64,000 nucleotides of DNA from a virus. Below, in pieces: positions 1-39,407 of this stretch. The position numbers were made by a program, and so were the translations under genes. The stretch's first letter is position 1; each line of letters starts with the position of its first letter. Below the pieces are notes generated by a model, which searched no databases, had not been told where the DNA came from, and saw only the letters and a program-made list of their open reading frames with translations. The DNA lies in the IMG/VR virus record IMGVR_UViG_3300035703_000011. One strand, 5' to 3'.

Positions 1-327
1 GAGCACCTGCAGCACCCTGTGCTCCTACAGCACCTTGAGCACCTGCAGCACCTTGTGCTCCTGTTGGACCTTGAGGTCCTTGTGATCCTTGAGCTCCTGC
101 AGCACCTTGAGCACCTGCAGCACCTTGTGCTCCTGTTGGACCTTGAGGTCCTATAGAACCTTGAGCACCTGCAGCACCTTGTGCTCCTGTTGGACCTTGA
201 GGTCCTTGAGCACCTGCAGCACCTTGAGCACCTTGAGCACCTGCAGCACCTTGTGCTCCTGTTGGACCTTGAGGTCCTCTGGCACCTTGAGCACCTGCAG
301 CACCCTGTGCTCCTTGAGGTCCACTAT
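1..327 (-). repeat. collagen-type G-X-Y coding tandem repeats (9-bp periodicity with longer ~60-70 bp units)
   Basis: Reverse complement reads GGT/GGA every third codon. Units such as gcaccttgagcacctgcagcaccttgtgctcctgttggaccttgaggtcc recur. Confidence 0.85.
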
Positions 328-1924
328 TTGGTGTGACCCATCTTAGACCAGACCCAGTGGAACTTAATACTGAACTAGCTGATCCCACATTATTATTAGA
401 ATCATAAATCCCACCAGTAATTCTTACATTACCTTGAACATGTAAATTCTGTGTTGAATTTGTGGTTCCTATGCCAACATTACCAATGCTTATTAATCCA
501 TTAGTGAATGTATGAATTCCTGTAATTGTTCTCCCTTCACTAATATGAACATACTGTGAATGATCATCATCAGATAAACCAGTTAAAGATCCATGATCAA
601 TAATTGTAGGTTGTGCTAATAAAGAAGCTGTTTGTGTTGTTCTTAAATCATATACTTCAATTAATCTTGCCTTTGGAGTATTTGTAAATGTACTATCAGT
701 CTCCCAAATAACCTTATAAAGAGGTCTAAATTCTAATGAAGGGAAATTGGGAAGATCTAAGTCATTAAAAGTAAGTGCCTCAATATCTGTCAGTTTATTT
801 GAAAATGTTTGTCCTAGTATTGCAAAAATTGGGTAGTTAAGATTATTGGAGGCAATAATCCATGAACATGTGTAATCTTTATTATTTGGACAATCTGGAG
901 TTGTCCAGGTTCCTCCTGTATTGAGATTATATTTTATCCTTGCTGTTCCCTGTTTAAGAGCATAGTCAGTAGGATAATCAAGAACCCATTCAGTTCCACT
1001 TAAATAAAATACTGGAATTCTTGCAGGACCTTCTAAATCTTGCTCCCAGGTATTTGCAGTAGGAGTATTGCTATGAGTAATATCAATTTGCAAATCCTCA
1101 TCAAAAATAGTTCCTCCTGCAATATCAAATTGAGCATCAGTATTTGAGGAACCATCACCTGTAGTAGTATAATTGGACATTCCAAGTCCATTTGCATAGA
1201 CTGCCCCACGAGTCCTATGTAAATATTCATGAGTAGCCCAATCTAGGGTCACACCATGTCTTTCATCTCCAAAATAATATGCAGTTCCTACACCTGCATT
1301 CCAATAGACATAAGCAGTTGGCGTATCATTATCCCAGACAAAATAACTTGACCTATAAGTAAGAATGCCAACAGGATCAAAATAAATGTAATAGATTCCT
1401 GATGTATTGGGGATTGTTGTAGATTGTGTTGTATTATAAGTATATTTTTCTGCCTGACACCATACATCAAAACTTGTGCTTACTGGTGAAATACTAAAGG
1501 TTCTATTGGATGAATTAAATGCAATTGTAGATTCATTTTTATCCTCATGACCTATTGGTTCTTTTGTTGCATCAGTGAGTTCTTTTGTTAGTACCTGATA
1601 CTGACCTTCATATAGTTGAGATGAGGTAGTGATTCCAGATACATTGACATCACCAACAACTGCCAATTTTACTGTTGGTAGAGTGCTTCCTACTCCAACA
1701 TTACCAGCAGTAAAATAAGTATTATATGCTGTACTTCCTACACCCACACTCCAAGGATTAATTGCAACAACTGTGGTCCCTATGCCAATGCTGCTCTGAT
1801 CCTTTTGAATATAAATTTTACCATCAAAAGTATTAATGGCTAACTCAGCTGCAGGCAAATCTGAAACTGTAGGGACTTTTCCGGGAACAGAAGATCTTTT
1901 AAACTTTACCTTTGGGTCAGCCAT
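1..1924 (-). CDS. tail-fibre-like structural protein with C-terminal collagen-like region (partial; 3' end runs off the window; absent from ORF track)
   Basis: Hand translation from the ATG (complement of 1922-1924, GAGG about 7 nt upstream) gives [41 protein letters not shown]. The frame stays open to position 1, and no other long ORF is listed here. Contains (V/I)G(I/V)G(T/S) fibre-type motifs. The last ~105 codons are G-X-Y ([13 protein letters not shown]). Confidence 0.75.
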
Positions 1925-2181: not shown

Positions 2182-3842
2182 CAGAATGTCCCACAATCAA
2201 CTGTAATATTTTCCAAAAATCTTTGTGATGATGTGCAAGAAATTACCTGTGAAGTTCCAGCACAATCAGTCACCCAAAGATCTTTGATTTGAAGTGAAGC
2301 ATAAGCATTTGCAGTTAGCACACCAGTAGATTCAGATATATCAGATGCAATACCAACTCTTTGTAGACTGTCATCCCAATAGACTGATGCCTTTTTGGAA
2401 GATCCATTGTACCAATTGAATATAATTCCAAGATCAAGATTTAGATCTGAAGATGGTGGAACAAGAGATCCTCCACTATTAACTAGACCCAAATCAATTA
2501 AAGTGTCCTCAACTTTTAATGCAGAGGTATTAACTTCAGTTGTATTTCCTAGGACATACAAATTTCCACTAATTGTGACACTGTTTGCAAATCCTACAGC
2601 ACCAGTAGTATTAGTAATTGTAATTGCATTTGTGCCATCTTTTGCTTTTACTGCAGAAGTTTCTACAGTTGGCACATCAAGTAAAGTTGTAATATTGACT
2701 GTATCTGGCAAACCAACAGTAACTGTTTGACCAGAAACTGAGGTATTAACTTCATTTGCAGTTCCAGAAATTGTCAGAGTTTGTGAAGTATTAACTGTGC
2801 TTGGACCACCAGAATCTGCATTCAATCCAAGAGTTAAATCAACAGCATCTACATATGCCTTTACAGCTGCCTGAGTTGGTAAATATGAATTACTATTTTC
2901 TACAAGATTTGTACTTATAGAAATTCCAGTAATACCAATTCCTGAAGTTCCACTAAGTTTAAAAGTTCCTGTGGTAGTGATTCCAGAAACAGTAACATAA
3001 TCAAATTCACTATTGCCAAGAACATCAATTCCACCATTAAAATCAGAAAATCCAGAGAAAGTAGAAAGTCCAGATACACTTATATTTTGTCCAATATTTA
3101 AAGATTTTTGTAGTCCTACTCCTCCAATGAATATAAATGAACCATTAGAAGAAGTGGTTGAATCAGTGCCATTTGCAACAGTGGTTATACCAAGTATCCT
3201 AACATCACTATCTGCTAAGATAGTGCCATCAACCATCAAATCTCCACTTACTGAGGCTATGCCAACCACAGAAAGTTCTTGAATTTCAGCATGAGCCTGA
3301 ACATCAAGATTATTATTTGTAATTGTCAGTCCATTAAATGTAGAAATACCTGAAACATAGATATTTCCACCAATATTAACAGACTTTGATACTCCTAATC
3401 CCCCAGCAATTTGAACTGCCCCATTAGTATAAGCAGTGGAATCAGTAGTATTACTAAATGTGGCTATTCCACTAAATGATGCTTCTGGAAATTGATTAGA
3501 CCATTCTAGAGTTCCAGTAGAATTAGTCTTTAAGAAATAACCATTAACTATTGTTTCTGGGAATGTATAAGTTACACCAGCTCCAGAAATAGTATCTGGA
3601 GACTTCAATGATACAAACTTTACTCCATTTTTATCTACTAAATTTAACTTGAGAGCAGATGTTCCATTTTCTCTGATCCAATATCTAGAGCTACCAAAAA
3701 ATTTATTATTGGCAATAGTATTATCTAGACCAATATAAAAATCGTATCTGTCAGTAGTAAATCCAGGTTCACCTGCCTTAAAGCTAGTTACTCCTACATT
3801 AGAGGATGGACCTCTTTTAAACTGAAGTACTGGTGATGGCAT
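2181..3842 (-). CDS. tail-fibre-like structural protein (553 aa)
   Basis: The N-terminus MPSPVLQFKRGPSS...TDRYDFYIGL resembles the N-termini of the neighbouring fibre genes. The protein is Ser/Thr/Gly/Asn-rich and beta-rich throughout. Confidence 0.8.
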   Translation of the reverse strand: MPSPVLQFKRGPSSNVGVTSFKAGEPGFTTDRYDFYIGLDNTIANNKFFGSSRYWIRENGTSALKLNLVDKNGVKFVSLKSPDTISGAGVTYTFPETIVNGYFLKTNSTGTLEWSNQFPEASFSGIATFSNTTDSTAYTNGAVQIAGGLGVSKSVNIGGNIYVSGISTFNGLTITNNNLDVQAHAEIQELSVVGIASVSGDLMVDGTILADSDVRILGITTVANGTDSTTSSNGSFIFIGGVGLQKSLNIGQNISVSGLSTFSGFSDFNGGIDVLGNSEFDYVTVSGITTTGTFKLSGTSGIGITGISISTNLVENSNSYLPTQAAVKAYVDAVDLTLGLNADSGGPSTVNTSQTLTISGTANEVNTSVSGQTVTVGLPDTVNITTLLDVPTVETSAVKAKDGTNAITITNTTGAVGFANSVTISGNLYVLGNTTEVNTSALKVEDTLIDLGLVNSGGSLVPPSSDLNLDLGIIFNWYNGSSKKASVYWDDSLQRVGIASDISESTGVLTANAYASLQIKDLWVTDCAGTSQVISCTSSQRFLENITVDCGTF

Positions 3843-3861
3843 GACTTACTCCTATTTTTAC

Positions 3862-3869
3862 TATTTATT
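3862..3869 (-). promoter_or_regulatory. late promoter-like box (AATAAATA)
   Basis: Reverse complement of tatttatt, 19 nt upstream of the ATG at 3842. Confidence 0.4.
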
Positions 3870-3871
3870 TT

Positions 3872-4168
3872 TTAGAAAGTTCCTGCATCTAAATCAATTC
3901 TATCATCCAAATCTACATCCATTCTATTCAAGAATGTGGAGGCATATCCTACCAATCCTGGTTGAATAGATTCTGAACCTGCAGCATAATTTAGAACTTC
4001 ATCAGGATTTACCATCTTATACTTTTGGGATGATGCATCATACACTAACACGTATTTATCATTTGCTGATGATGGATCAAAATCTATTAAATCTTGAAGT
4101 CTTGTAGTGGGCACGTTAGATACTACCTCTAGTGTAGATGAAGTGGTTAATTCTACTTGTATGTCCAT
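3872..4168 (-). CDS. hypothetical structural-module protein (98 aa)
   Basis: ORF packed between fibre genes. Its start overlaps the stop of the upstream ORF at 4168. It ends in the same ...D-x-G-T-F motif as the 553-aa protein. Confidence 0.6.
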   Translation of the reverse strand: MDIQVELTTSSTLEVVSNVPTTRLQDLIDFDPSSANDKYVLVYDASSQKYKMVNPDEVLNYAAGSESIQPGLVGYASTFLNRMDVDLDDRIDLDAGTF

Positions 4169-4510: not shown

Positions 4511-4518
4511 TATTTATA
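4511..4518 (-). promoter_or_regulatory. perfect T4 late promoter box (TATAAATA)
   Basis: Reverse complement of tatttata, 17 nt upstream of the ATG at 4494. Confidence 0.55.
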
Positions 4519-4525
4519 CTAACCA

Positions 4526-5209
4526 TCAAATCCAAAATGGGTCTTTACTGTAATTGAAAGTTTCAAAATCTTTTTTATATATTTGTTTCACCTTTTCTAT
4601 CATTTCATCATCATAATACTTTGAATAGTCTTTCACATAATTGCCAACATTAGTTTTTGTAGTCAATATATTTTTCAAATTGAAATCATTCCCAAGTTGT
4701 TGCAAATCATCTTCAATTTTATAGATTCTATCATACTTAATTTGACCATCAGAATTTGTCAAAAAGTCACATTGATTTGCAAATAGATTGATGGGAAAGG
4801 ATGGTTGAAGATCTAAAAAGTATTTGTAATCGAATACTTCCTTGAATGATAAAGTTCTATTAAATTCTGGAAAAAAATCAGATGAAAATGCTTTTAAAAT
4901 TTCATGATATGATGAAACTGCCCAAGCATAAGGATTTCTTACTATTGAAAAAATTTTTAGTTTACTGCAATTAAAAACTTTTTCATAAATGGATAATGGA
5001 ATATGCTTAGATAGTATTGGATAGGATTCTTTGAGAAGAGCAACATCTCTATTCAAAGTGAGATTATTCCACCAGTAATCATAAGCTTTATTTGTAATAT
5101 AGACGTTTTCAAAAATGTGATTATCAGAATTTAAAAATAATTCCTTTAAATTAGTTCCAGATGTTTTTGGTATATGAATATACAACCATTCTCTATTAAT
5201 TACAAACAC
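4526..5209 (-). CDS. sulfotransferase family protein (Sulfotransfer_2-like)
   Basis: IHIPKTSGTNL (5'-PSB-like PAPS loop) and VRNPYAWAVSSY (3'-PB-like RNPxxRxxS motif). Confidence 0.75.
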   Translation of the reverse strand: MFVINREWLYIHIPKTSGTNLKELFLNSDNHIFENVYITNKAYDYWWNNLTLNRDVALLKESYPILSKHIPLSIYEKVFNCSKLKIFSIVRNPYAWAVSSYHEILKAFSSDFFPEFNRTLSFKEVFDYKYFLDLQPSFPINLFANQCDFLTNSDGQIKYDRIYKIEDDLQQLGNDFNLKNILTTKTNVGNYVKDYSKYYDDEMIEKVKQIYKKDFETFNYSKDPFWI

Positions 5210-5210
5210 A

Positions 5211-6152
5211 CTAATTTAAATCAGTAGAATAACCAAACATCTCAAATTCATCCAGACATTTTTTCTGCACTGCTTTTATGGATTCCTCTGTATAAACATT
5301 AGTGTATTGTTTGCCAGGAACATCATTAACTTTTTTATCTGACCAACTGACTCCATTTTCTTGGAAAAATAATTTAACTTCAGTATTCAGATCTTCAAAT
5401 TTCATTATTTTCAAACTATCATCATATCCTTTAAGAAAAAATGTTTGTCCTTGCATAAAGTAATAGTGATTATAATTTCCATCTGCCCATGAAGTCACAA
5501 AATCATTAAATTTATCTTCCACTTCAGGAAATTCTAGATTCCCTGGAAGGCCATAAATTCTAGACCATTTCCATAAACTATAAACTCTATCATATGGATT
5601 TCTAACAACAGTAATAAACTTAACTCTTTCATCATTTGACAATTCTATATGTTCTTTTACAAAAGAAATTCTAGGAGCATTTTTAATTGGTGTGGAAAAA
5701 ATATTATTATTGACAAAGGGGTCTAAAATTTTGGAAGTTTCTACACATTCTTTGATTCTGGATTTAATAAACATTCCTGCAGTTTTAGGAATATGAATAT
5801 AAATCCATGCCTTACCTTGAGAATTTAAAATATTACTTAGACCTTCATTGCTACTAGAACCATTATTGTTATTTAAAACATATGTTCGTTTAGCTTCATC
5901 AAAAACTACATCTGGAAAATTTTCTTCTGCATAAGGTTCTAGTGCATCAAGATATGGTTGCAAAATTGAAACATCATTAAAAGATGACTCAATTATAGAT
6001 CCCTTTTTGAATTGAACAGACCCTTTTCCATCTTTCCATTCTATACTCTCTATATGATTATCATCAAAATCCCACTTTGGAATATTTAATGATACCTCAT
6101 CTGTTTTTATCCATCTCATTGATGGAACAATAGTTATGTTCATGGCAATCAA
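5211..6152 (-). CDS. sulfotransferase family protein with ~110-aa N-terminal extension
   Basis: IYIHIPKTAGMFI and VVRNPYDRVYSLW motifs. It is a paralogue-type neighbour of the ORF at 4526 and sits 1 nt from it. Confidence 0.75.
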   Translation of the reverse strand: MIAMNITIVPSMRWIKTDEVSLNIPKWDFDDNHIESIEWKDGKGSVQFKKGSIIESSFNDVSILQPYLDALEPYAEENFPDVVFDEAKRTYVLNNNNGSSSNEGLSNILNSQGKAWIYIHIPKTAGMFIKSRIKECVETSKILDPFVNNNIFSTPIKNAPRISFVKEHIELSNDERVKFITVVRNPYDRVYSLWKWSRIYGLPGNLEFPEVEDKFNDFVTSWADGNYNHYYFMQGQTFFLKGYDDSLKIMKFEDLNTEVKLFFQENGVSWSDKKVNDVPGKQYTNVYTEESIKAVQKKCLDEFEMFGYSTDLN

Positions 6153-6631
6153 TAAATTATACTGTTTCTCTTTATATCTATAAACAAAAATTTCATAGGT
6201 TTATCTGATAAATTATATCCCTCATGGATATAGTCCATTACTTCGTATATTTGAGGAACTCCTTCCTCCCAAAATACCTTTTCACCATTCCAAATCATAT
6301 AACATTTGTCTTTATCTGGTATTTCAATGGGAATTTGAATTCTTTTATATGGTTCTTTGTAAATATTTGGATCTTTATGAGGTCCAAGTTCTGTTCCTTG
6401 ATCAAAAACTGCAAACATTGAAAATAATATATCATCATTCTCTAATATTTTTTCTATTTTTTGATTTTTTATTGTACTTTTTCTTATTATAGAATTTTTT
6501 CTATTTTTCTTTAACCAACAAAATTTAATTGGAACTGAAGAATATCCATCAGCAGTAGGACCAAATCTTAATGGCAATTCAGTATTTTTTGCCCACTCAA
6601 AAAGAATATTTAATTCATTTTTTTCAATCAT
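6149..6631 (-). CDS. aspartyl/asparaginyl beta-hydroxylase-like (LpxO-like) 2OG-Fe(II) cupin
   Basis: LGPHKDPN...RIQIPIEIP...CYMIWNGEKVFWEEG...IHEGYNLSD...FLFIDI matches the pH.D...R.h.p...P...W.eG...H...N layout of the Asp_Arg_Hydrox family. There is a 4-nt overlap with the downstream gene. Confidence 0.6.
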   Translation of the reverse strand: MIEKNELNILFEWAKNTELPLRFGPTADGYSSVPIKFCWLKKNRKNSIIRKSTIKNQKIEKILENDDILFSMFAVFDQGTELGPHKDPNIYKEPYKRIQIPIEIPDKDKCYMIWNGEKVFWEEGVPQIYEVMDYIHEGYNLSDKPMKFLFIDIKRNSIIY

Positions 6632-6632
6632 T

Positions 6633-7124
6633 TTAAATTTGAGTAAAAATAACTGCTACTGAATTTTGGTTGAGATCTAAACTATATTCTTTTCCAGAAA
6701 CTAAAGATGCATAATTGTATCTTTTAAATTTTTTATCATTCACTATCATAGTACCATCTAAACAAATTAATATAGATTTTTTATCTTCTTTTATTATTTT
6801 TGTATTTTCATTCAACATTTTAGCATTCCAATGAATATTTTTATCCATTGTATTGAATCCAATTAGACAAAAGTCCTCATGAGATTGGAATATTACTTCA
6901 GAATTTACATAATCTCTAACATCTACTAACTTTTTTGATTCTATTAAAATGTAATCAGATTCAAAAATTTTTCCAAATTTTCCAGAACCATACAATCCAT
7001 AGTAAAAAATTGTATATCTTTCATTTGGATGCTCTGCTAGAACATAACCCTTTTCGCCAATATTAACACACAAAGTAAAATCTTCACAATTTCTATGAAA
7101 TCTTCTACAAGTAGGATCTCTCAT
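6633..7124 (-). CDS. hypothetical protein (163 aa), beta-rich, possibly cupin-like
   Basis: ORF abuts its neighbours (1-nt gaps). No diagnostic motif recognised. Confidence 0.55.
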   Translation of the reverse strand: MRDPTCRRFHRNCEDFTLCVNIGEKGYVLAEHPNERYTIFYYGLYGSGKFGKIFESDYILIESKKLVDVRDYVNSEVIFQSHEDFCLIGFNTMDKNIHWNAKMLNENTKIIKEDKKSILICLDGTMIVNDKKFKRYNYASLVSGKEYSLDLNQNSVAVIFTQI

Positions 7125-7466
7125 TTATAACATTGATGTAAATATGTGACTTCCATTTAGTATTTCTTCCAAATCAACACCAACAATTTTATCAACATAG
7201 TCATTCAAATCTTCAGAATCTATTTCCTCTACTATTTGATTTTCATGGTGAATTGGTTCATCTTCTATTTGCTTTCTGACAACATGCATCAAATTCATAA
7301 TTATTGAATGTTTAAAATTTTCATAACTACTAAAATCAATGTGCATAACATCTAAGGCAATAGAAGGATACTTATCTATTACTTTAGGAGCATTTTGCCT
7401 ACAACATTTTATTACAATTTGTTCAGTGTCTGGAAGATACTCTACTATTTTAAATATTAATTTCAT
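7125..7466 (-). CDS. hypothetical acidic protein (113 aa)
   Basis: First ORF behind the late-promoter-like box at 7487. Contiguous with the next ORF. Confidence 0.55.
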   Translation of the reverse strand: MKLIFKIVEYLPDTEQIVIKCCRQNAPKVIDKYPSIALDVMHIDFSSYENFKHSIIMNLMHVVRKQIEDEPIHHENQIVEEIDSEDLNDYVDKIVGVDLEEILNGSHIFTSML

Positions 7467-7486
7467 AAATTTGACCCTAGGTTTTT

Positions 7487-7494
7487 ATATTTAT
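7487..7494 (-). promoter_or_regulatory. late promoter-like box (AATAAATA)
   Basis: Reverse complement of tatttatt, 20 nt upstream of the ATG at 7466. It overlaps the stop of the glycine-rich ORF. Confidence 0.4.
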
Positions 7495-7898
7495 TCAGGT
7501 GTAGTAAAATAATCTATGCTTCCTATGATTGTTCCATTATTATATAAAGTCAAAAAATTTGGGAGAAAACCAGCAGCTGGAGTAACAAGTATAGCACCTC
7601 CATTTGCACCAGGATTTCCTCCACCTTGATTAGCAGTATCTTGTCCTTTCTGAGCATTTTGTGATGGATCTCCACCATCTCCACCACGACCTGCTTCTCT
7701 TCCTCCATTGCCACCAGTTCCTCTAACTGTTTCTGACCCTGCAGTTCCTGCAGATCCCGAACCTCCTTGTCCTGCTACACCAGTTGATGTAGTTGTTCCC
7801 CCTGCTCCTCCAGGAAGTCCAGCACCTCCACCTCCTCCACCTCCAGTGGAGGTTCCTCCACCTCCACCGCCGCCTCCGCCACCTCCTTTTCCTCCCAT
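7491..7898 (-). CDS. glycine-rich protein (135 aa; poly-Gly N-terminus)
   Basis: MGGKGGGGGGGGGGGTSTGGGGGGGAGLPGGAGG... A strong SD (TAAGGAGGT) lies 7 nt upstream of the ATG. The region is a GC-rich island in an AT-rich genome. Confidence 0.65.
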   Translation of the reverse strand: MGGKGGGGGGGGGGGTSTGGGGGGGAGLPGGAGGTTTSTGVAGQGGSGSAGTAGSETVRGTGGNGGREAGRGGDGGDPSQNAQKGQDTANQGGGNPGANGGAILVTPAAGFLPNFLTLYNNGTIIGSIDYFTTPE

Positions 7899-7910
7899 TA
7901 GTTTACCTCC

Positions 7911-8744
7911 TTACCTAGATCTAAATCCACCAGCACCACCACCACCAAATCCACACTGAATGTATCCATTATTTGTCAAAGTGGTTTGATAATCAATACC
8001 TATGGCACTGGATCCAGGAGATCCTGCACCAGCATTAAATGATACAGATGTTGCACTCCAATTTCTACGTGCCTCATATCCATAAAATCCATATTTTCCA
8101 CTTTGGATAAAAACTGTATTGCCTGGATACCATCCAGAAGTCCAATCCCCTGATGGTGGGGATGGATCATATCCTTTACATTGGGATAAGTATACATTAC
8201 CCTTATATTCTCTGAAATGAAGGCATGGTTCTGCATAAACTGCAGTTCCACTTTCACCTGTTGTTGTTGCAGTAAAGTCTCCTCCTTTACCACCAGAACC
8301 AATGATTCTTGCACTAGAACCCAAAAGAACCTCAAGAGTTGCTGAAGTTCCCCAAGTACCAGTTCTCAATGCCACATGATTTCTTGATGCACTAGAAGAT
8401 CCTATTGTCTTATTTACACTGACCAATATTCTTTTTTGACTTGGATCTGCAGGTCTAGATGTAAATCCTCCTATAACAGTGACACCAGCATTAGTATCAT
8501 ATTTTGATCTCATATTCACACGATCTTCTCTGGCACCAGAAATATCTACAACAATGTTTAATCTCTTTCCTCTTAATTGACTAAAACTAATTGGCCCACT
8601 TTGAGGAATACCTGTATCTAAAGGTAGGTTTGAATATAATCCTGCAGATTGAGATACTCTATATGCTCCTAGAGATTTAGATCCATTTCTACCAAATTCA
8701 GACTCTATATCAGAAAATGCTATAGTTCCTGTTGGAGTAGGCAT
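7911..8744 (-). CDS. fibre-associated protein with glycine-rich segments (277 aa)
   Basis: Lies directly downstream of the 1,621-aa fibre gene. The N-terminus TIAFSDIESEFG...SLGAYRV is followed by GSGGKGGDF, GAGSPGSS and a C-terminal GFGGGGAGGF. Confidence 0.7.
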   Translation of the reverse strand: MPTPTGTIAFSDIESEFGRNGSKSLGAYRVSQSAGLYSNLPLDTGIPQSGPISFSQLRGKRLNIVVDISGAREDRVNMRSKYDTNAGVTVIGGFTSRPADPSQKRILVSVNKTIGSSSASRNHVALRTGTWGTSATLEVLLGSSARIIGSGGKGGDFTATTTGESGTAVYAEPCLHFREYKGNVYLSQCKGYDPSPPSGDWTSGWYPGNTVFIQSGKYGFYGYEARRNWSATSVSFNAGAGSPGSSAIGIDYQTTLTNNGYIQCGFGGGGAGGFRSR

Positions 8745-8747: not shown

Positions 8748-11700
8748 CTATCCTCCTAATTGTAATTTATCTATTTTGGAAGAAAGTTCTTTAATTGCTT
8801 CAATTAATAATGGAACAAGTTTTTCATATTTTACAGTTAAGTAATTATTATCTGCTGGTGCAGGAGCAATTGCCTCTGGAAGAACAGATTGAACTTCTTG
8901 AGCAGAAACTCCAGAATGTCTTATGTCCATTTTAAATCCAAGACTTTCGCCAATTTCATTAAAGTTGTATGTAAATCCTCTAAGTGAACAAACTTTTTCT
9001 AGGGCATTATTAATAATTTCAATATTTGTTTTAAGTCTTTCATCAGAAGCAAATGCAGTGATATCATTTGAGACAAAAAGATTATTTGTGCTTGGGTTAT
9101 AATATATTCCTGCATCAGTATAAAGAATTTCATTTGCACTAGATGCATTGTTAGAATCAACAAATGTAAGGTAGTGATCAGCATTTGCAGATGGTAATGA
9201 TGGTACAGATCTTGTGGCAATAGTACCGGCAGAAGTGGCATTTCCACTAAAACTAGTTGCTGTTACTGTCCCAGAAACTGAAAGGCTTCTGTAAAAATCA
9301 ATTGTACTGTTATCAAAAGTTGCTATATCTACATGTCCTGACCCAGTATATCTTTGAATGTAAAATTTAGAAGCAGCACTAGAATTAAATCTAGCTGCAA
9401 TATTAGTGGCATCACCATACCACCCAACATTTATTCCATTTCCAATTTCAAATAGACCAACACCAGAAACTATTAATTTTCCAGTTAATTTAATGTCACC
9501 ATTTTGTCCAGCAGCTCCACCAACATCAAGAGCATATGATGCTGTTGTTGAAGCTTTGTTAATGCTCAATCCAGTAGTAGTAAATCTTAAATTATTATCT
9601 CCAGTAGCAATATTGCTGTCATTTTTAAAGATTACTTGATTAGATAATCCAGCAGTTAATCCTGGACCTTGAGGACCTATTTGACCTTGAGGACCTATTG
9701 GACCCTGAGGTCCTCTAACTCCTTGAGCACCTTGTGGACCTATTGGACCTTGTGGTCCTTGTGGACCTCTTAATGAATTTCCTTGTGGTCCTATGGCACC
9801 TTGAGGACCTCTATTTCCAGTTCTAACAAACTGCACATAAAGTTGGGATCCCTCATAAAAATACATTGTGCCAGTTCCGCCCAAATATTGAACATTGATA
9901 GTAGAGTAATCAGCAAATGTTTGATTATCGCTAATTACAGAATAAATTTCAGTATCTGATGGAGAAGTAGATATAATTAAGTAACCTCTTTGGGAGCTAT
10001 TTGTAGAATCATCAAATGTACTAATCCATTGTGAAACATTTCCACCAAGACTAGAAAAATTATGAATATAAATCTGATTTACTAGTGAAAAATCTAAAGA
10101 ATTAAAACGTATATGTGCATATTGTGGAATAGGAGTGGTAACAGAAGAATAGTTGTACAGAACACCTGTATCAATACCTCTAACCCCTTGGGCACCTTGG
10201 GCACCTGCAGCACCTTGGGCACCTGCAGCACCTTGGGCACCTGCAGCACCTTGAGGTCCTTGAATTCCTTGTGGTCCCCTTGGACCTGGAACTGTACTGG
10301 GATCTCCAGCAGGACCTTGAGCACCTTGAGGTCCTTGAAATCCTTGTGGACCTATTGGACCTTGAGGTCCTCCTCCTTGTGGACCTTGGAAACCTTGTGG
10401 ACCTCTTGGTCCTTGTGGACCAATATTTCCCTGAGGTCCTATAGATCCACCTGATCCTTGAGGTCCTAAAGGTCCTTGAGGTCCTATTGATCCTTGTGGA
10501 CCTCTTGGTCCTTGTGGTCCAATAATACCCTGTGGTCCAATTTGCCCTTGAGGTCCAATAATACCCTGTGGTCCAATAATACCCTGTGGTCCAATTCTTC
10601 CTTGTGGACCTTGTGGTCCCAATGTCCCTTGTGGACCCAATGATCCAATTCCACCTTGAGGTCCAATTCCACCTTGAGGTCCTAGTAAACCTTGAGATCC
10701 CTGAGGACCTCTTGGCCCCTGTGGACCTATTGGACCTCTAATATTACCAACATTGTCCCAATCTGTACCATTATATACCCAAAGGTCTCCTGTATCTTGA
10801 GCGATTACGCCGTCACCAGTAGAAGGAGGATACCAAGAAAATCCAGAATCATCTGCAGTTAATGTAGTATGCGGAGATGATGTGGTTACTGAAGAAACTG
10901 ATCCTACAATAGTGACTGATGTTCCTGCAGCTCCTTGAGCACCTTGAGGTCCAAAGGGACCTTGAGGACCTTGTGGTCCAATAATACCTTGAGGACCTCT
11001 AACACCTTGAGGTCCAATGAGACCTTGACTTCCTTGAGGTCCAATTAATCCTTGTGGACCTCTAGGACCTTGTGGACCTTGAAAACCTTGAGGTCCTTGA
11101 AAACCTTGAACACCTTGTGGACCCATAGGACCTTCAGTACCTTGTGGTCCTACAATACCAGGACCACCAGCTGGACCTTGTGGTCCTTGAAACCCTTGAG
11201 GGCCTCTTTGTCCCTGAGGACCTTGAGGACCTATTTGTCCTTGTGGTCCAATGATACCTTGAGGACCTATTTGTCCTTGAGGACCTATTTGTCCTTGAGG
11301 ACCTATTTGTCCTTGAGGACCTTGAGAACCTTGTGGACCTCTTGATCCTTGTGGTCCAATATTTCCCTGAAAACCTTGAGGTCCTCTGGCACCTTGAGAT
11401 CCCTGAGGTCCTGAAGGTCCTTGAGGTCCTTGTGGACCAATGATACCTTGAGGACCTATTTGTCCTTGTGGACCAATGATACCTTGTGGACCAATGATAC
11501 CTTGAGGACCTATTTGTCCTTGTGGGCCAATGATACCTTGTGGACCAATAATACCTTGTGGTCCTATTAGACCTTGAAAACCTTGAGGCCCTCTTACCCC
11601 CTGAGGACCTATTTGTCCTTGAGGACCTATTTGTCCTTGAGGACCTATTTGTCCTTGAGGACCTTGAACCCCCTGAGGTCCTTGTGGACCAGTTAATCCT

Positions 11701-13613
11701 TGAGATCCTTGAGGACCTTGGAAACCTTGAAATCCTTGAGGACCTTGAAATCCTTGAGGTCCTACTCTTCCTTGAAATCCTTGAGCACCTGGAACACCAG
11801 GATTTCCTGATGTTCCTTGCGGACCTTGAAATCCTTGTGGTCCTATTTGTCCTTGTGGACCAATAGAACCTTGAGAACCTGTACTTCCTTGTGGACCTAC
11901 ATTTCCTTGAGGTCCTTGAAAACCTTGAGGTCCTATATTTCCTTGAGCACCTTGTGGTCCAGATAGTCCTTGAGATCCTGCAGTTCCTTGGGGTCCTCTG
12001 ACTCCTTGATCACCTTGAGATCCTTGAGGACCTCTAACTCCTTGAGCACCTTGAGCACCTTGAGGTCCAATATTTCCTTGTGATCCTTGAGGTCCTATAG
12101 ATCCAGTTGTTCCTCCTATACCAGGACTACCCTGAAATCCCTGAGCACCTTGAGGTCCAATATTTCCTTGTGATCCTTGAGGACCTCTAATTCCTTGAGC
12201 ACCTTGAGCGCCTTGAGGACCTCTAACTCCTTGAGCACCTTGAGGACCTTGCAATCCTTGAGAACCTTGTGGTCCTATTGGACCTTTAATAGTTCCAACA
12301 TCATCCCAATTTGATCCATCATAAACCCAAAGATTTCCTGTGTCTTGAGCAATTACACCATCTCCTGTGGATGGTGGATACCAAGAAAAAATAGAATCAT
12401 CAGCAGTTAATGAAGTATGTGGTGCTGATGTAGTTACTGAAGGAACTGATCCTACAATAGTAACAGATGTTCCATCATCTCCCTTTGGCCCTTGAGGTCC
12501 AATAATACCTTGAGGTCCTTGAAATCCTTGAGATCCTTGAGGTCCTTGCAATCCTTGAGATCCTTGAGGTCCTATGTCACCCTGAGCACCTTGAGGTCCT
12601 GTTGATCCAGTTGCACCTCCTTCTCCAGGAACTCCTTGAGCACCTTGTGGACCTATTAACCCTTGGGACCCTTGTGGTCCTATTAATCCTTGGTCCCCCT
12701 TAGCACCTTGTGGTCCTTGGAGACCTTGGAATCCTTGGAATCCTTGAGTGCCTTGAGGTCCTTGAAAACCTTGAGCACCTTGAGGACCCTGAAATCCTTG
12801 TGGCCCTATTGAACCCTGTGGACCCTGGAATCCTTGTGGACCCTGGAATCCTTGTGGTCCTATTGGACCTTGTGGTCCTTGAAATCCTTGGAATCCTTGT
12901 GGTCCCTGAAATCCTTGAGGACCTTGTAACCCCTGAAATCCTTGAAATCCTTGTGGTCCTAGAGGTCCAGAGGCATAAGCCCAAGTAAAACCTAATCCTG
13001 GACCAAGAGATGTTAATACTTGGTATATTCCACCAGATAGTCCTTCCCTATTAACTAAATCTCCAGTAACCCTAACTGAGTTGGTATTAATATCTACTGG
13101 ATAATTTGGTTGAGTATTTCCTATACCAAGATATCTAGAGTTTGGATTAAAGACCAATGTAGTAGGAGAAATCTCAAATCTTTCAAGATCCTCTCCAGAT
13201 CTTTCGCTAGTAAATCCAATATACCTTATATTAGAATCTGTAGGTTCTTCTACTGGGATATCTAAAACTGTAATAGTAGCAATACCCAATCCTGGAGATA
13301 CTTGCCCTGTTGCTACTACTCTTTTTCCTACAAAGTTTAACTTAGTAATAGATCCAGCTACACCTACCAGATTACCTTCATCAAAAACTGTGATTCCTAA
13401 TTCTAATAGACCAGGGGGAACTGGAGTCCAATATCTAAGTTTATCTCCCCCAATTCCAATAAGAACATATTGTGCCCCAATTGGAATAATTGGACTATTG
13501 GCAGGATCTCCCAAACTAGGCTCAGCTTGATTTAACCCCAGAAAATCATATCTGTCTGAGGTTAATCTTGAAAAAGGAGTATTTATAACTCTTCTACTTA
13601 AATATTTTGCCAT
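8748..13613 (-). CDS. giant collagen-like tail fibre protein with C-terminal intramolecular chaperone (peptidase S74) domain
   Basis: 1,621 aa with four G-X-Y blocks ([10 protein letters not shown]...), two duplicated globular inserts and a third globular domain. The C-terminus [31 protein letters not shown]...[15 protein letters not shown]...[16 protein letters not shown] is typical of the S74 auto-cleaving chaperone (predicted S|D cut between 9045 and 9044). Confidence 0.9.
9660..12972 (-). repeat. collagen G-X-Y coding repeat region, interrupted at ~12288-12472, ~10738-10925 and ~9830-10172
   Basis: Gly codon every third position over ~850 codons by my coordinate estimate. Many near-identical 18-45 bp units occur, for example ggacctatttgtccttga repeated. 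Confidence 0.9.
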
Positions 13614-18129: not shown

Positions 18130-18191
18130 AAACTCTCATAATAAAGGCAATTGCAAAGTGTGGGGGTCTATTTTCGTGGTAGTCACTTCCA
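18125..18191 (-). repeat. 67-bp direct repeat, copy A (relic of the 3' end of the 1,702-aa fibre gene)
   Basis: Aligns with 18920-18986 with about 7 mismatches. In the fibre frame it would read GSDYHENRPPHFAIAFIMRVS*, compared with GSDYHENRPPYYALAFIMRVS* in the intact gene. Confidence 0.85.
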
Positions 18192-18894
18192 TACCAACTA
18201 AAACATAAGACCACCTTAAATGATTTTTATCTTTATTTATTACAGGACTATGTAACAAATTTGCATCATATAAGGTCATAGTTCCATACTCAGAAGGACA
18301 TTCGCCAATTTTTTGTAAGTAAGAATCTCCTTCGTAATTATCATACATTTCATAACGATTTAAAAAACTTGAAGCATAGTTTTGATAGTCCTCATTACTA
18401 TAGAGACTTTCTTTGTACTTCCAAAAAGCAGTACCTCCATTAAATCCCTCACTTAACCAAATATTAGATGCAACAATAGTCTTAAGATTTGAAGTTAAAG
18501 ATATATCACTATGAGGTAATAATGAAGTTTTTTGAGTTGTTATTTTTCCATACTTAAACAGATTTCCATAATCATTAAAAATTAAATTTTCACACTCATA
18601 ATTTAAATTATTTTTGATAAACTCCTTTAAAAAATATTTAAGGTTTCTCAATTGAAAAGATGGAAGATTTTGTTTAAAGAAACAATTGTATCCATATTCA
18701 TCAGTAGGATTAAAAATAGGAGAAAGTTTAGCAACTTCAACAAATAAGGAAAAATTTTTAAATAGGTTTTTAACTATCCAATAACCACAACCATCACAAA
18801 TTTCATGATACTTAATATCGATTTCTGAAAATGAGTTTAGTTGAATAGATTCAATTAAAAGTTCTTGATTTATAAAAGTTAAATCATTTTTCAT
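18136..18894 (-). CDS. 2OG-Fe(II) oxygenase-like protein, same family as 47545 and 48132, on an inserted cassette
   Basis: LLPHSD...IWLSEGFNGGTAFW...TMTLYDANLLHSP...RWSYVLVG parallels HTD/HSD...YLTPDAP..GGT...LILYPGNLFHAS...RLFQTFFF in the tandem pair. The last ~19 codons are read from repeat copy A in a shifted frame. Confidence 0.6.
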   Translation of the reverse strand: MKNDLTFINQELLIESIQLNSFSEIDIKYHEICDGCGYWIVKNLFKNFSLFVEVAKLSPIFNPTDEYGYNCFFKQNLPSFQLRNLKYFLKEFIKNNLNYECENLIFNDYGNLFKYGKITTQKTSLLPHSDISLTSNLKTIVASNIWLSEGFNGGTAFWKYKESLYSNEDYQNYASSFLNRYEMYDNYEGDSYLQKIGECPSEYGTMTLYDANLLHSPVINKDKNHLRWSYVLVGMEVTTTKIDPHTLQLPLL

Positions 18895-35066: not shown

Positions 35067-35501
35067 ATGAGTTATAAAGGTGTCTATAAACCATCAAACC
35101 CCAAAAAATATATTGGAGATCCAAAAAATATCATTTATAGATCTTTGTGGGAAAGAAAATTTATGGTTTGGTGTGACCTAAATGAAAATATTATAAAATG
35201 GTCTAGTGAAGAAATTTGGATTCCATATATATCTCCATTAGACAATAGATGCCACAAATACTTTCCTGACTTTTACATAAAATATAAAGATGCTGAAGGA
35301 ATTATTAAAGAAAGTTTGATTGAAGTAAAACCAAAAAGACAAGTTGAAGGTCCTAAACCACAAAAGAGGATGACTCAAAAACAAATGTATGAGTTAAAAG
35401 AGTTTGCTAAAAATCAAGCAAAGTGGAAAGCTGCAAAAGAGTTTTGTGAGGATAGAAGATGGAACTTTCAAATATTAACGGAGGATAATCTTGGCATATA
35501 A
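35067..35501 (+). CDS. gp4: head completion protein, T4 gp4-like
   Basis: YKGVYKPSNPKKYIGDPKNIIYRSLWERKFMVWCDLNENIIKWSSEEIWIPY...HKYFPDFYIKYKD...LIEVKPKRQ follows the gp4/gp50 family pattern as I recall it. Confidence 0.6.
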   Translation: MSYKGVYKPSNPKKYIGDPKNIIYRSLWERKFMVWCDLNENIIKWSSEEIWIPYISPLDNRCHKYFPDFYIKYKDAEGIIKESLIEVKPKRQVEGPKPQKRMTQKQMYELKEFAKNQAKWKAAKEFCEDRRWNFQILTEDNLGI

Positions 35502-36030
35502 AACTATCTTCGAGCAGATAAAAGAAAATTCTGGGGAAAGGAATCAATCAAGAGAATGGTACAGAGAACAATTGTTTGAGAGATCCCCAGAAGATATTAT
35601 AACAGAGGAGAGGTCTGATGAAGTTGGTGATGTATTAAAAAGAGACCAAAATAGAAGTACATCATTTCCTCTATTATTTAATTTAATGTTCTACAAATAT
35701 AGAGCAAAGACAAGAAGAGATCTTCCTTATTATGATAAGTATCCATTAGCATTTGTTTTAGAAATGGATGCAAGATCTTTTTTTGCTGTCAATCTTCATT
35801 ACTACAGTCCTAAGGAAAGACTGGGAATAGTAATGAGTCTGGCAGAAGATAGAATACCAAAGTTTCGTAAAGGAGCACATAAATACTTATTATCAGAGGT
35901 AAGAAGTCCTTATCTAATCTTAGCACAGCAAGAATGGCAAACCATGTGTCTACTACCAGTAGAAGAATTTGTAAGGGATTTGGGTGGGGTAGAAATACCT
36001 ATTCCTTCAGAAAAAGTGTGGGGTAGATAG
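35491..36030 (+). CDS. DNA end protector gp2-like protein (TTG start)
   Basis: There is no in-frame ATG before residue 66. The TTG at 35491 lies 6 nt after GGAGG (35480-35484). YKYRAKTRRDLPYYDKYPLAFVLEMD...FFAVNLHYYSPKERL resembles the gp2 core motif. Confidence 0.45.
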   Translation: MAYKTIFEQIKENSGERNQSREWYREQLFERSPEDIITEERSDEVGDVLKRDQNRSTSFPLLFNLMFYKYRAKTRRDLPYYDKYPLAFVLEMDARSFFAVNLHYYSPKERLGIVMSLAEDRIPKFRKGAHKYLLSEVRSPYLILAQQEWQTMCLLPVEEFVRDLGGVEIPIPSEKVWGR

Positions 36031-36032
36031 AT

Positions 36033-37436
36033 ATGGCAGGAACATATGGGGAACCAGGAAAAACTGAATTTCAACTAAAAAACATAGTAGGAAAATACTC
36101 TATTGTAGTAAATCCAGAAACAAAAATATCTCAAATTTATCAAAGAAAATCTCAATTTGATTTTCAGTCTATAGGAACATTAAATCTAGCAACAAATCAA
36201 TTAACATTTGATCAAAATGCTCCACTAACAAGAGAAAATAAATCTGATTTAAGTAAAAATATTGATACTTTTAGAAAACAATCTGTAGTTGTAGCAACTG
36301 TTGGAGGAGCAACAAATGCAGAAGAACTACTATTAGGAAACTCTGAGCAAGCACCAGGATCACCAACAGCAAATCCAGAAAATCCTGGAGAAATAACTGA
36401 TGAAAAACCTGGGGATGCTCCAGGATTAACAGACCTTAGTGAAAATTTTAGAGATAAAAATGAATTCAATAATATAAAAAAATTTTTATATTACCCAAAT
36501 ACCATACTAAGTAATGGTCAAGATAAATTATTAATATCTCAATATTCATATGTTCCTGCACCAATAACATCTGGTGGAGTAGAATCTGTACAATCAAACC
36601 TCACAAATAGAAACACTCAATTCACAGAGTGGTTAGGAACAGTAACTTTGCCAATACCAAATGATTTATCTGAGATGAATCAAGTTGGGTGGGGAGAAGA
36701 TAATTTATCTGGTATTACTGCATCTCTAATGGGAGCTGGGACTGGTATAGTAAAAGATCTTTCTGGGTTTGATGCTCAAGGATTGATAGGACAATTTGAA
36801 AATCTTGGTGGTATATTAGGATCAACTGCAGTAAAAACTAGATTGAAGCAATTTTTAACAGCAAGTACAAGTGCAGAAATATTAAAAAAAATAGGAATTA
36901 ATGTAAATCCAGAAGCATATATTAACAGAGTAACAGGAGCAGCAATTAATACAAATCTAGAACTTTTATTCAATGGTCCAAAGTTAAGACCATTCTCCCT
37001 ATCATTTAAAATGTCTCCAAGAAATAAAGATGAAGCTCAAAACATTAGATCTATTATAAAGTTTTTGAAAAAAGGAATGTCTCCAAAAAGATCTAAAAAT
37101 TCAGATGTAATGTATTTTCTTGGATCACCTAATGTATTTAAAATTAAATTTACAAAAGGAGAGAGCACATTAGATGACCCATTAAATATAAAAGACTTAG
37201 ATAGTATAGGAAGATTTAAAACCTGTGCTTTAGTTTCTTGTGGAGTAAATTATACACCAGATGGAGTTTATGCTTCATTTAATGATCCAATAGTTGGTTC
37301 CCAACCAATTGCAGTTTTAGTGACACTATCATTCATAGAACTAACACCAATTTTTAATGATGAGTATGAAGATTCTTCTACAATTGGACCTGAAAGAATT
37401 AATGAAAAGTTTGAATATCAAGAAAGTACAAATTAA
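36033..37436 (+). CDS. baseplate tail tube cap, gp48-like (gp19/48/54 fold family)
   Basis: The C-terminal half LELLFNGPKLRPFSLSFKMSPRNKDEAQNIRSIIKFLKKGMSP...VFKIKF...CALVSCGVNYTPDGVYASF...PIAVLVTLSFIELTPIF fits the tube-family pattern. Confidence 0.5.
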   Translation: MAGTYGEPGKTEFQLKNIVGKYSIVVNPETKISQIYQRKSQFDFQSIGTLNLATNQLTFDQNAPLTRENKSDLSKNIDTFRKQSVVVATVGGATNAEELLLGNSEQAPGSPTANPENPGEITDEKPGDAPGLTDLSENFRDKNEFNNIKKFLYYPNTILSNGQDKLLISQYSYVPAPITSGGVESVQSNLTNRNTQFTEWLGTVTLPIPNDLSEMNQVGWGEDNLSGITASLMGAGTGIVKDLSGFDAQGLIGQFENLGGILGSTAVKTRLKQFLTASTSAEILKKIGINVNPEAYINRVTGAAINTNLELLFNGPKLRPFSLSFKMSPRNKDEAQNIRSIIKFLKKGMSPKRSKNSDVMYFLGSPNVFKIKFTKGESTLDDPLNIKDLDSIGRFKTCALVSCGVNYTPDGVYASFNDPIVGSQPIAVLVTLSFIELTPIFNDEYEDSSTIGPERINEKFEYQESTN

Positions 37437-37441
37437 GACCA

Positions 37442-39007: not shown

Positions 39008-39065
39008 TAGATTACCTCGGATTAATTGGATTAAAAGGTTACAGGTTAGTTTAAGATGACTGGAG

Positions 39066-39407
39066 TTATTTGTCAATTCCAGTCATCAGGTTAGAGATGG
39101 TCATTTTCATGGTCCTAAAAATTGAATTAATATCAGAATTTTTAAATCCAAGCAACTTAGAAGATTCTAGTATCTGATTTTTCATCTCAATCGCATTAGG
39201 ATCATCAGATAAACTCAATCTTGTATATAACAGTTGCTGTTTGTCTAACAAATCAGAAAGTATTTTAATATGCTTCTCTTTTTCTACTTTACTCATAGAA
39301 GGAAATCTAAAAATTTCTTTTCCAATTTCCTTTTGAAGTCTATTAATATCCTCTAATTCTTGCTTAACAATTTCAGAATCAAAGAATGCCATCAGATTTT
39401 CTCCCAA
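39066..39407 (-). CDS. hypothetical protein (113 aa)
   Basis: ORF between gp59 and gp32. Confidence 0.5.
   Translation of the reverse strand: MGENLMAFFDSEIVKQELEDINRLQKEIGKEIFRFPSMSKVEKEKHIKILSDLLDKQQLLYTRLSLSDDPNAIEMKNQILESSKLLGFKNSDINSIFRTMKMTISNLMTGIDK

Follow-up and report, generated by a model that had tools for sequence, protein, structure and literature searches.

A cluster of putative modifying enzymes in a tail-fibre region raises the question whether its genes belong together and what they act on. The stretch of viral DNA considered here is 64,000 nucleotides (nt) long (IMG/VR record IMGVR_UViG_3300035703_000011; this whole stretch is called the window). Tail-fibre genes run unbroken over its first 24 kb (positions 1-24 kb), and inside that run five open reading frames (ORFs) lie back to back on the minus strand, from 7466 down to 4526. 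They are named, in that order, ORF5, ORF4, HYD, ST2 and ST1. An earlier reading of the DNA alone, referred to as the original prediction, recognised ST1 and ST2 as sulfotransferases and HYD as an Asp/Asn beta-hydroxylase-like cupin, and described a late-promoter-driven operon of five genes that might decorate fibre proteins. Comparison with related contigs shows that uncultured marine T4-like cyanophages have a conserved fibre-tip module, of which the block forms the enzyme-bearing end; it is not a fixed five-gene operon. The earlier interpretation is partly supported: it is right in direction and needs correction as to which genes are core and which accessory, the glycine-rich partner, the HYD site and the existence of a precedent.

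A conserved core beside a glycine-rich adhesin

Gene contexts were collected through homologues of ST1, ORF4 and HYD, and the contigs obtained in this way are labelled L0xx. HYD lies inside a fibre module in 13 distinct contigs, namely the window, L005, the NCBI contig GCA_041442895.1, L003/L004, L017, L008/L009, L010, L014, L018, L022, L023, L024 and L025. Wherever the contig is long enough, the genes follow one order: a long fibre ending in a Peptidase_S74 domain, a glycine-rich adhesin similar to the window's P277 (fused or split), ORF5, ORF4, HYD and then the next fibre. L018 begins inside ORF4, with the genes upstream not visible, and the small gene found between HYD and ORF4 in L023 has no match to ORF5. 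Across the lineages of the module, HYD and ORF4 are 50-65% identical; ORF5 and the N-terminal domain of the adhesin are 33-46% identical, rising to 55-68% in L006 and L025, two nearer lineages. ORF5 (33-68% identity) stands directly before ORF4 or a sulfotransferase gene in L003, L005, L006, L008, L010, L014, L017, L022, L024 and L025. The conserved core is ORF5-ORF4-HYD, and the sulfotransferases are accessory, variably placed or absent; the idea of a fixed operon of five genes is not upheld.

The sulfotransferases recur in the module in five arrangements. The window shares the order HYD-ST2-ST1 with L005 and the NCBI contig. ST2 orthologues also follow HYD in L018 (71% identity), where the order is HYD-ST2-X183-ST1-TauD-2OG-FeII_Oxy_3, and in L025 (65%), where it is HYD-ST2-Oxy_3. 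A single sulfotransferase gene (ST) is placed within the core in L003 and L017 (ORF5-ST-ORF4-HYD-Oxy_3) and at the far end in L023 (HYD-x-ORF4-Oxy_5-Oxy_3-ST). L008, L010, L022 and L024 have no sulfotransferase and carry an Oxy_5 gene before the adhesin gene, L008 having an Oxy_3 gene after it as well. Outside the window, the variable enzyme set includes P4H-like, TauD-like or 2OG-FeII_Oxy_5 oxygenases. The original prediction expected the block to travel with collagen-like or glycine-rich fibre genes. The glycine-rich part of that expectation holds in the 13 contigs, the glycine-rich adhesin being the constant neighbour; a collagen-like long fibre is present only in the window's lineage.

Two contigs illustrate how the slot can be filled. 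The additions in L018, a relative of the window's lineage, consist of an unannotated 183-aa ORF (1551-2102; aa, amino acids) between the two sulfotransferase genes and a TauD-family dioxygenase (2816-3874) after them. Since enzymes of the TauD family have sulfonates, sulfate esters and amino acids as substrates, sulfur-related chemistry may be elaborated further in this contig. The same slot has other content in L027 (MH319720.1, uncultured marine virus AG-345-D19, record positions 36000-54000), which encodes, in order, an S74 fibre, a 698-aa P277-like protein, an SNase-like nuclease, a cytidylyltransferase-like protein, a 122-aa ORF, an ORF4-like bicupin (31% identity) and a 1013-aa protein.

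Predicted proteins of the core and the accessory sulfotransferases

HYD (6149-6631, minus strand, 160 aa) matches the Pfam family Asp_Arg_Hydrox (PF05118) with 35.3 bits and E=1.3e-8, above the gathering score of 22.6, and belongs with phrog_25655 (E=1.6e-60). A direct sequence search of the Protein Data Bank (PDB) with HYD returned nothing useful, and a profile search returned only marginal matches to AspH. Consequently, structure prediction was needed. The AlphaFold2 (AF2) model, with a predicted local distance difference test (pLDDT) score of 94.1, has a double-stranded beta-helix (cupin) fold. Its best Foldseek match is L-proline cis-4-hydroxylase (4p7x, E=8e-9, query TM-score (TMq) 0.68), and human AspH is matched at E~2e-7 with TMq 0.65-0.69 and 17-18% identity. 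The residues H85-x-D87...H136 and R97 are invariant among 9 context-defined and 31 diverse database homologues. In the alignment to AspH, H85 corresponds to H679, D87 to G681, R97 to R688 and H136 to H725.

The comparison with AspH also reveals differences at the active site. Ten residues after H136, at the position of AspH R735, HYD carries Met146, and this residue is Met in at least 90% of the sequences; the column equivalent to AspH S668 is Ala or variable. In AspH, R735 and S668, numbered according to established knowledge and PDB variant entries, bind the C5-carboxylate of 2-oxoglutarate (2OG). Since HYD does not have these canonical binders, the term Asp/Asn beta-hydroxylase is to be read as a fold or superfamily assignment and not as a reaction. 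The earlier assignment is therefore borne out by the Pfam match, the fold and the HxD...H triad, and fails at the 2OG C5 binders. HYD shares with AspH and L-proline cis-4-hydroxylase the PF05118 family, the double-stranded beta-helix, the His...His metal ligands and the R688 equivalent. Unlike AspH, it is only 160 aa long, has no tetratricopeptide repeat (TPR) or membrane region, keeps a full HxD...H where AspH has HxG, and has no substrate like the epidermal growth factor (EGF)-like domains of AspH, none of which was found near HYD. As modelled, HYD is a metal-binding member of the AspH-like superfamily with an uncertain co-substrate; given the Arg-to-Met change, a non-canonical co-substrate may be used.

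The only NCBIfam matches of HYD are LpxO (38.3 bits, cut-off 500) and OlsC (27.2 bits, cut-off 450). Assignment as an LpxO or OlsC equivalog was rejected because the scores lie far under the cut-offs. The three proteins fall in the same Pfam superfamily, but HYD is not a member of either family by score, and inspection of its translation reveals no hydrophobic segment resembling a membrane anchor. A scan of GTDB genomes with the HYD profile, made in search of a cellular origin, gave one match, on a 5.3-kb contig labelled 'Dehalococcoidia MAG', which is probably mis-binned phage DNA.

ORF4 (6633-7124, minus strand, 163 aa) and ORF5 (7125-7466, minus strand, 113 aa) have no match in Pfam, PHROGs or NCBIfam. 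ORF4 has 94 homologue clusters, every one of them marine-metagenomic and at least 50% identical. Its AF2 model (pLDDT 94.3) is a compact all-beta structure of two small beta-barrels, and Foldseek relates it to bicupins: 3rns at E=1.6e-6, YhaK at TMq 0.69, and BacB, AerE and HutD at TMq ~0.6. The classical cupin motif G(X)5HXH(X)3-4E...H is missing, with only E31, H32 and E35 present; the invariant residues include C6, C19 and E31, and H32 is nearly invariant. With high confidence in the model-based assignment, ORF4 is a predicted bicupin and the best-conserved partner of HYD that has no known family. In ORF5, the N-terminal ~60 aa are conserved, followed by an acidic and variable C-terminus. 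Exhaustive searching with HMMER recovered no annotation for ORF5 and 84 representative relatives, which with few exceptions are standalone proteins of 105-130 aa. ORF5 may be an adaptor or chaperone.

ST2 occupies 5211-6152 (minus strand, 313 aa) if a TTG start is used, or 5211-6143 (310 aa) from an ATG; the ATG at 6143 is the likely start because homologues begin at MNITIV. ST1 (4526-5209, minus strand) is a stand-alone enzyme of 227 aa with a GTG start. The choice of start affects the packing of the block. Apart from the ST2 junction, the intergenic gaps are 0, 1 and 1 nt, as originally described, and all five ORFs are present; the reported 4-nt overlap exists only with the mechanical TTG start at 6152, and with the ATG there is a 5-nt gap to HYD. 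No signal peptide and no membrane helix can be read from the five translated N-termini on inspection, and the five proteins are therefore probably soluble and cytoplasmic.

The two sulfotransferases are paralogues with 26-27% identity. ST1 scores 33.2 bits against Sulfotransfer_2 (E=7.9e-8) and 30.1 bits against Sulfotransfer_1 (E=4.2e-7; gathering score 22), and its PHROG match is 'Galactose-3-O-sulfotransferase'. ST2 matches Sulfotransfer_1 over its C-terminal ~200 aa (28.5 bits, E=1.2e-6, gathering score 22) and phrog_3347. The score of ST2 for Sulfotransfer_2, 16.4, is under threshold. The sulfotransferase domain of ST2 spans residues ~110-313 of the TTG-start ORF; N-terminal to it lies an additional ~105-aa domain that has no Pfam match.

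Both signatures for binding 3'-phosphoadenosine-5'-phosphosulfate (PAPS) are present in both proteins, and all of the peptide motifs quoted earlier for the block were found in the translations. The 5'-phosphosulfate-binding (5'-PSB) motif H-x-P-K-T-x-G is invariant or nearly so among 19 family members (IHIPKTSGT in ST1, IHIPKTAGM in ST2), as are R91, N92, P93, Y94 ... S99 of the 3'-phosphate-binding (3'-PB) motif. ST2 carries RNPYDRVYS and ST1 carries RNPYAWAVS, aligned to RNPRDVVVS of human SULT2B1. A candidate catalytic base is the His of the ST1 'KHIP' segment, which lines up with the SSHLP His of SULT2B1. Most cyanophage members retain it, but the column is not invariant family-wide, and the invariant H12 beside the PSB loop could be the base instead. 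With both motifs intact, ST1 and ST2 are predicted to be sulfotransferases of the PAPS type, as originally proposed. No PAPS-synthesis gene occurs among the annotated ORFs of the window, and use of host PAPS is therefore assumed. A relative of ST1 is also found in a giant-virus-like contig (L020/L021) that carries an Rpb1 RNA polymerase subunit: the 207-aa sulfotransferase at 10001-10624 is 32% identical to ST1 and adjoins a 1933-aa protein, which indicates that the family is common to marine phages and viruses like the nucleocytoplasmic large DNA viruses (NCLDV).

Neighbouring fibres, promoter motifs and genome setting

As originally noted, collagen-like, glycine-rich and fibre genes flank the block on both sides: GLY135, P277 and a 1621-aa fibre upstream, and P108, P553 and a further collagen-like fibre downstream. 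The adhesin-like P277 (7911-8744, minus strand, 277 aa) matches the tail-fibre family phrog_11439 (E=5e-7). The family alignment shows a conserved N-domain of ~150 aa, followed by glycine-rich motifs that are split by a lineage-specific hypervariable insert of ~75 aa. GLY135 (7491-7898, minus strand, 135 aa, 39% glycine) is the separate C-terminal half of this gp38-like adhesin. Its framework GGGGGGGAGxPxG...EAGxGGxGG is conserved, and the glycine-rich part contains 29-44% Gly across lineages. Among candidate substrates or clients for the cassette, GLY135 stands first; the conserved GG(D/N)GG-type positions of the adhesin are only suggestive as a target of HYD. Glycine-rich receptor-binding tips are found in Pam3 gp24 and S16 gp38 (PMC9608196). 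The window's P277 has no match to GP38 (PF05268) at E<0.1. Its homologues score 22.1 bits (L014, E=1.5e-4) and 18.9 bits (L003), which is weak and under the gathering score of 25, and those in L022 and L024 reach E<=1e-5 in precomputed tables. A PDB profile search with the P277 family for S16 gp38 yielded only artefacts from low-complexity poly-Gly linkers.

The adhesin is fused in L003, L008, L010, L022, L023 and L024, and a separate GLY135-type ORF is found in the window, L006, L014 and L025. In the window, the split (7898-7913) lies in the same frame and consists of a TAA stop, a GGAGGT ribosome-binding site and an ATG. A pseudogene or frameshift was considered and rejected, given these signals and the recurrence of the split in L006, L014, L025 and the NCBI contig. 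In L014, a Peptidase_S74 chaperone domain is located at the split point, a sign that the glycine-rich half may be released, or else assembled, as a polypeptide of its own.

The module is headed by the long collagen-like fibre (8748-13613, minus strand, 1621 aa), which has GPQG repeats and an endosialidase-chaperone-like (Peptidase_S74-type) C-terminal end, regarded as self-cleaving. Its C-terminal ~110-140 aa are 40-76% identical to the module-leading fibres of L003, L008, L010, L022 and L025, and Pfam Peptidase_S74 is detected in those of L003 and L022. Two near-identical non-collagen inserts (TSVTIVGSV...WDDVG) are placed between its long GPQG tracts. Further upstream are fibres matching phrog_17885 and phrog_529. 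On the other side of the block, P108 (4168-4494, minus strand) is the first structural gene, with its own late-promoter motif, and matches phrog_1084 (E=1e-23) and phrog_3304, 'L-shaped tail fiber protein assembly' (E=1e-21). It adjoins ST1 in L002, L005 and the NCBI contig as well, and is followed in the window by a 553-aa structural protein (P553) and then by another collagen-like fibre. This last fibre gene, of at least 641 aa (1-1924, minus strand), with a fibre-type N-terminus and a collagen-like repeat region, runs off the start of the window.

A T4-type late-promoter-like motif (NATAAATA) precedes the block in the form AATAAATA, with 22 nt between it and the start codon of ORF5. The box described in the original prediction thus exists at promoter distance; its position is 7488-7495 (minus strand), and not 7487-7494. 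The canonical T4 late-promoter motif TATAAATA at 4511-4518 (minus strand) is located in the 31-nt gap after ST1, 17 nt before P108, and marks the downstream limit of the block. The number of AATAAATA occurrences in the window is at chance (10 found, 12.7 expected). The count alone was therefore rejected as evidence, and a positional enrichment test was used instead. Positions 12-34 nt before a same-strand gene start make up 3.3% of the window, and 11 of the 23 NATAAATA sites fall on them, against ~0.8 expected. Among these 11 are the sites that precede ORF5 and the genes for P553, P108, the collagen fibre, P1350 and P1702. No terminator-like site was found on the minus strand within the block, and scans for sigma-70 promoters and terminators were at chance level.

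Experimental information on timing is available for one homologue. PHM2_185, the HYD homologue of Prochlorococcus phage P-HM2 (52% identical), is classed as 'Late (D)' in both light and dark infections (PMC5082946, supplementary file 3), and its neighbours PHM2_184 and PHM2_187 are classed as 'Mid' (PMC5082946). PHM2_186 is likewise late, the pair being flanked by middle genes. In the 16.2 kb around PHM2_185 (P-HM2 record positions 154146-170374), ATAAATA is found 0 times against 5.1 expected, so the late promoter of PHM2_185 and PHM2_186 is not the canonical motif. Late expression of the block, as originally proposed, is plausible, from motif geometry in the window phage, where the spacing before ORF5 agrees with that before the neighbouring fibre genes, and from experiment for the homologue.

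By gene content, the virus is an uncultured T4-like cyanomyovirus: it encodes psbA, gp32, gp59 and baseplate genes, as well as a gp5-like hub, T4_baseplate, gp53, PhoH and ThyX. Megablast of the window against 50,697 phage records found no match, and a sensitive blastn search against the same records found a sole match, to the HYD gene of P-HM1 and P-HM2. The G+C content of the block is 24-29%, and the G+C content at third codon positions (GC3), 0.13-0.20, equals the genome background. Low G+C as a sign of recent horizontal transfer was rejected on this ground, the dip being attributable to amino-acid composition; the genes are accordingly regarded as long-resident and not recently imported.

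Other parts of the window also encode enzymes. A glycan-biosynthesis cluster of ~19 kb (44151-63083, minus strand) contains a fusion of a family 2 glycosyltransferase (GT2) and a methyltransferase, UDP-galactopyranose mutase (Glf), more GT2 genes, two GT25 genes, GT11 and GT10 genes of fucosyltransferase type, a DegT aminotransferase, an NAD epimerase and a GDP-mannose 4,6-dehydratase. Interrupting it are psbA (50874-52004) and genes for a Metallophos phosphoesterase, a lysozyme and a Peptidase_C39_2 protein. Of three DUF6445 genes on the minus strand, two (47545-48135 and 48132-48698) lie within this cluster; the third (18136-18894) stands alone between the fibre genes P1350 and P1702, as a further enzyme-like insert in the fibre run. 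Beside the baseplate genes, an opposite-strand island (35067-38104) comprises a gene with a TnsA-like endonuclease N-terminal domain (35067-35501, plus strand, E=5e-25) and three other plus-strand ORFs.

Proposed fibre-tip modification, its alternatives and its precedents

The favoured reading starts from gene content, predicted folds, motif conservation, synteny, promoter-motif placement and the late expression of one homologue. It takes the cassette to serve the late-expressed modification or maturation of the fibre tip, by hydroxylation and then O-sulfation, and has about an even chance of being correct. The proposed substrate, reaction, order of steps and roles of ORF4 and ORF5 would be as follows. 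The block genes would be transcribed late together with the fibre genes, from the NATAAATA promoter, and the enzymes would act in the cytoplasm of the infected cell during fibre assembly. HYD, with ORF4 as partner and ORF5 as adaptor or chaperone, would hydroxylate adhesin or fibre-tip side chains. With host PAPS, ST1 and ST2 would next O-sulfate the new hydroxyls, or Ser, Thr or Tyr residues. In this way the receptor-binding tip would become chemically altered and negatively charged. A bolder proposal, which is put forward only tentatively, is that phage enzymes diversify a polyglycine adhesin: HYD, the bicupin and the adaptor would hydroxylate it, swappable enzymes, among them sulfotransferases and P4H-like, TauD-like and Oxy_5 oxygenases, would elaborate it further, here by O-sulfation, and host range would be set in part by post-translational chemistry.

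A number of observations weigh against modification of the fibre tip. Because HYD is without the canonical C5-binding Arg and Ser, canonical 2OG binding is doubtful. The occurrence of the genes near non-structural ones, which the original prediction had named as counting against it, is found in a minority of lineages: HYD stands alone, outside the fibre region and with non-structural neighbours, in P-HM1, P-HM2, MED4-213 and L015, and in L007 ORF4 and HYD form a pair with small non-structural ORFs around it. L006 and L027 retain ORF4 without HYD. In L016, a sulfotransferase homologue is found beside a helicase, with no HYD in its 5-kb and 9.8-kb contigs, and more distant sulfotransferase homologues occur in the giant-virus contig (L020). 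No cultured phage among the 50,697 phage records carries the module: tblastn of ST1, ORF4 and P277 against them gave weak or uncultured matches only, those of ORF4 and P277 being to uncultured viruses alone. The slot after an adhesin gene usually holds fibre-assembly chaperones, so ORF5 and ORF4 may not be enzymes. Finally, the likeness to Sulfotransfer_2 and Gal-3-O-sulfotransferase fits carbohydrate acceptors equally well, and the same phage has a large glycan-synthesis cluster.

These last points lead to an explanation in which the sulfotransferases and HYD remodel host lipopolysaccharide (LPS), exopolysaccharide (EPS), a lipid or a phage-built glycan, possibly as a superinfection block or release aid, and the fibre region merely tolerates insertions. 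Such a role would agree with the family matches of ST1, with the ~19-kb glycan cluster, with LpxO and OlsC being the sole NCBIfam matches of HYD, with HYD genes outside fibre regions in the P-HM2 group, L015 and L007, and with the DUF6445 gene that likewise sits between fibre genes. However, the LpxO and OlsC scores of 38 and 27 bits compare with cut-offs of 500 and 450, and no membrane-anchoring segment is visible in the HYD translation. In the contigs examined, the sulfotransferases are never within the glycan cluster or beside glycosyltransferase genes. Moreover, adjacency to the adhesin and gene order are kept across lineages at ~50-60% identity while the flanking fibres vary, which makes permissive insertion alone hard to sustain. 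Late co-expression with structural genes is not needed for surface remodelling, though compatible with it. On balance, this explanation is considered unlikely. Chemistry on a free amino acid or metabolite required late in infection, and not on a protein, is considered more improbable than any other explanation weighed here. The best structural match of HYD is a free-amino-acid hydroxylase, the bicupins BacB and AerE work on small molecules, HYD is solitary in P-HM2, and cyanophage dioxygenase arrays have been suggested to make secondary metabolites (PMC2938197). Nevertheless, a small-molecule role leaves the persistent linkage to the adhesin gene unexplained, and the modules examined contain no biosynthetic scaffold genes (nonribosomal peptide synthetase (NRPS), ATP-grasp or similar).

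A different alternative concerns folding. ORF5, ORF4 and possibly HYD could be chaperones or scaffolds that fold the polyglycine tip, in the manner of T4 gp38/gp57A and of Mu and Pam3 Tfa, with the sulfotransferases as passengers. Genes located right after those for receptor-binding proteins typically encode fibre chaperones (PMC9608196). No genes accompany the adhesin more constantly than ORF5 and ORF4, which are kept where HYD is absent (L006, L027); ORF4 does not have the classical cupin metal motif, and the divergence of ORF5 keeps pace with that of the adhesin N-domain (33-46% identity), which is what a binding partner would be expected to show. What speaks for enzymes is that the metal-binding triad of HYD is invariant in 31 diverse homologues and 231 clusters, which indicates catalysis, and that the slot repeatedly gains bona fide enzyme families (Oxy_3, Oxy_5, TauD and sulfotransferases). 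The ORF4-HYD pair is also found away from any adhesin gene (L007). In addition, the best structural matches of ORF4 are all barrels of the cupin or cyclic-nucleotide-binding type and include no fibre chaperone, its viral matches being unannotated. A purely chaperone role is accordingly judged quite unlikely, slightly more so than the remodelling of surface polymers.

Modification of the fibre tip, the favoured reading, can be compared with several known systems. No characterised precedent had been known to the original prediction; a predicted one exists in bacteria, where Iyer et al. (2010) proposed operons of beta-hydroxylases and sulfotransferases acting on co-encoded Gly-rich, collagen-like or tail-collar proteins (PMC2938197). 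The logic of these operons is hydroxylation, followed by sulfation of the hydroxyl (PMC2938197), and for the block, too, this is the most economical interpretation. The block resembles them in placing HYD, from an Asp/Asn/Pro beta-hydroxylase family of 2OG-type oxygenases, and the P-loop sulfotransferases ST1 and ST2 beside GLY135, P277 and a collagen-like fibre. In contrast to the window, the bacterial operons are cellular, are a computational prediction only, and come with PhyH-methyltransferase fusions and often PAPS synthetase, both absent from the block and from the window ORFs scanned against Pfam. Conversely, the proposed client here is a phage virion fibre tip, and the core adds the ORF4 and ORF5 families. 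In the papers searched, no later characterisation of the predicted hydroxylase-sulfotransferase systems was found, and no account of a comparable cassette linked to the receptor-binding tip of a phage.

P277 and GLY135 resemble the T2/S16-type gp38 and Pam3 gp24 in being encoded by small adhesin genes after a long distal fibre gene. They further resemble these proteins in the conserved N-terminal attachment domain and in the combination of GGGGxGG-type motifs (~39% Gly) with hypervariable segments. They differ in that the glycine-rich half often forms a polypeptide of its own and that the window's P277 lacks a GP38 match. To our knowledge, no gp38 system has linked oxygenase or sulfotransferase genes. 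Enzymes that modify a virus's own surface structural proteins, including by hydroxylation of collagen-like proteins, are a principle shared with other viruses. The mimivirus L230 lysyl hydroxylase/glycosyltransferase modifies viral collagen-like proteins, and the prolyl 4-hydroxylase of PBCV-1 and the virion glycosylation of mycobacteriophages are further virus-encoded examples. The viruses and enzyme families are different ones; we know of no sulfation, AspH-like cupin or polyglycine tip in these cases, and none of them is T4-like.

Whatever the mechanism, the comparison defines a recurrent and previously undescribed module, composed of an S74 fibre, a gp38-like Gly-rich adhesin, ORF5, a bicupin, an AspH-like cupin and variable enzymes, and with it a hot spot of enzyme gain and loss beside a receptor-binding gene. 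ORF4 and ORF5 represent two new virus-restricted protein families. If fibre-tip modification is confirmed, the cassette would be the first enzymatic hydroxylation or sulfation system for a phage receptor-binding protein and would provide the first experimental handle on the hydroxylase-sulfotransferase systems of Iyer et al. (2010). Receptor recognition by abundant ocean cyanophages would then depend on post-translational chemistry that is invisible to sequence-based prediction of host range.

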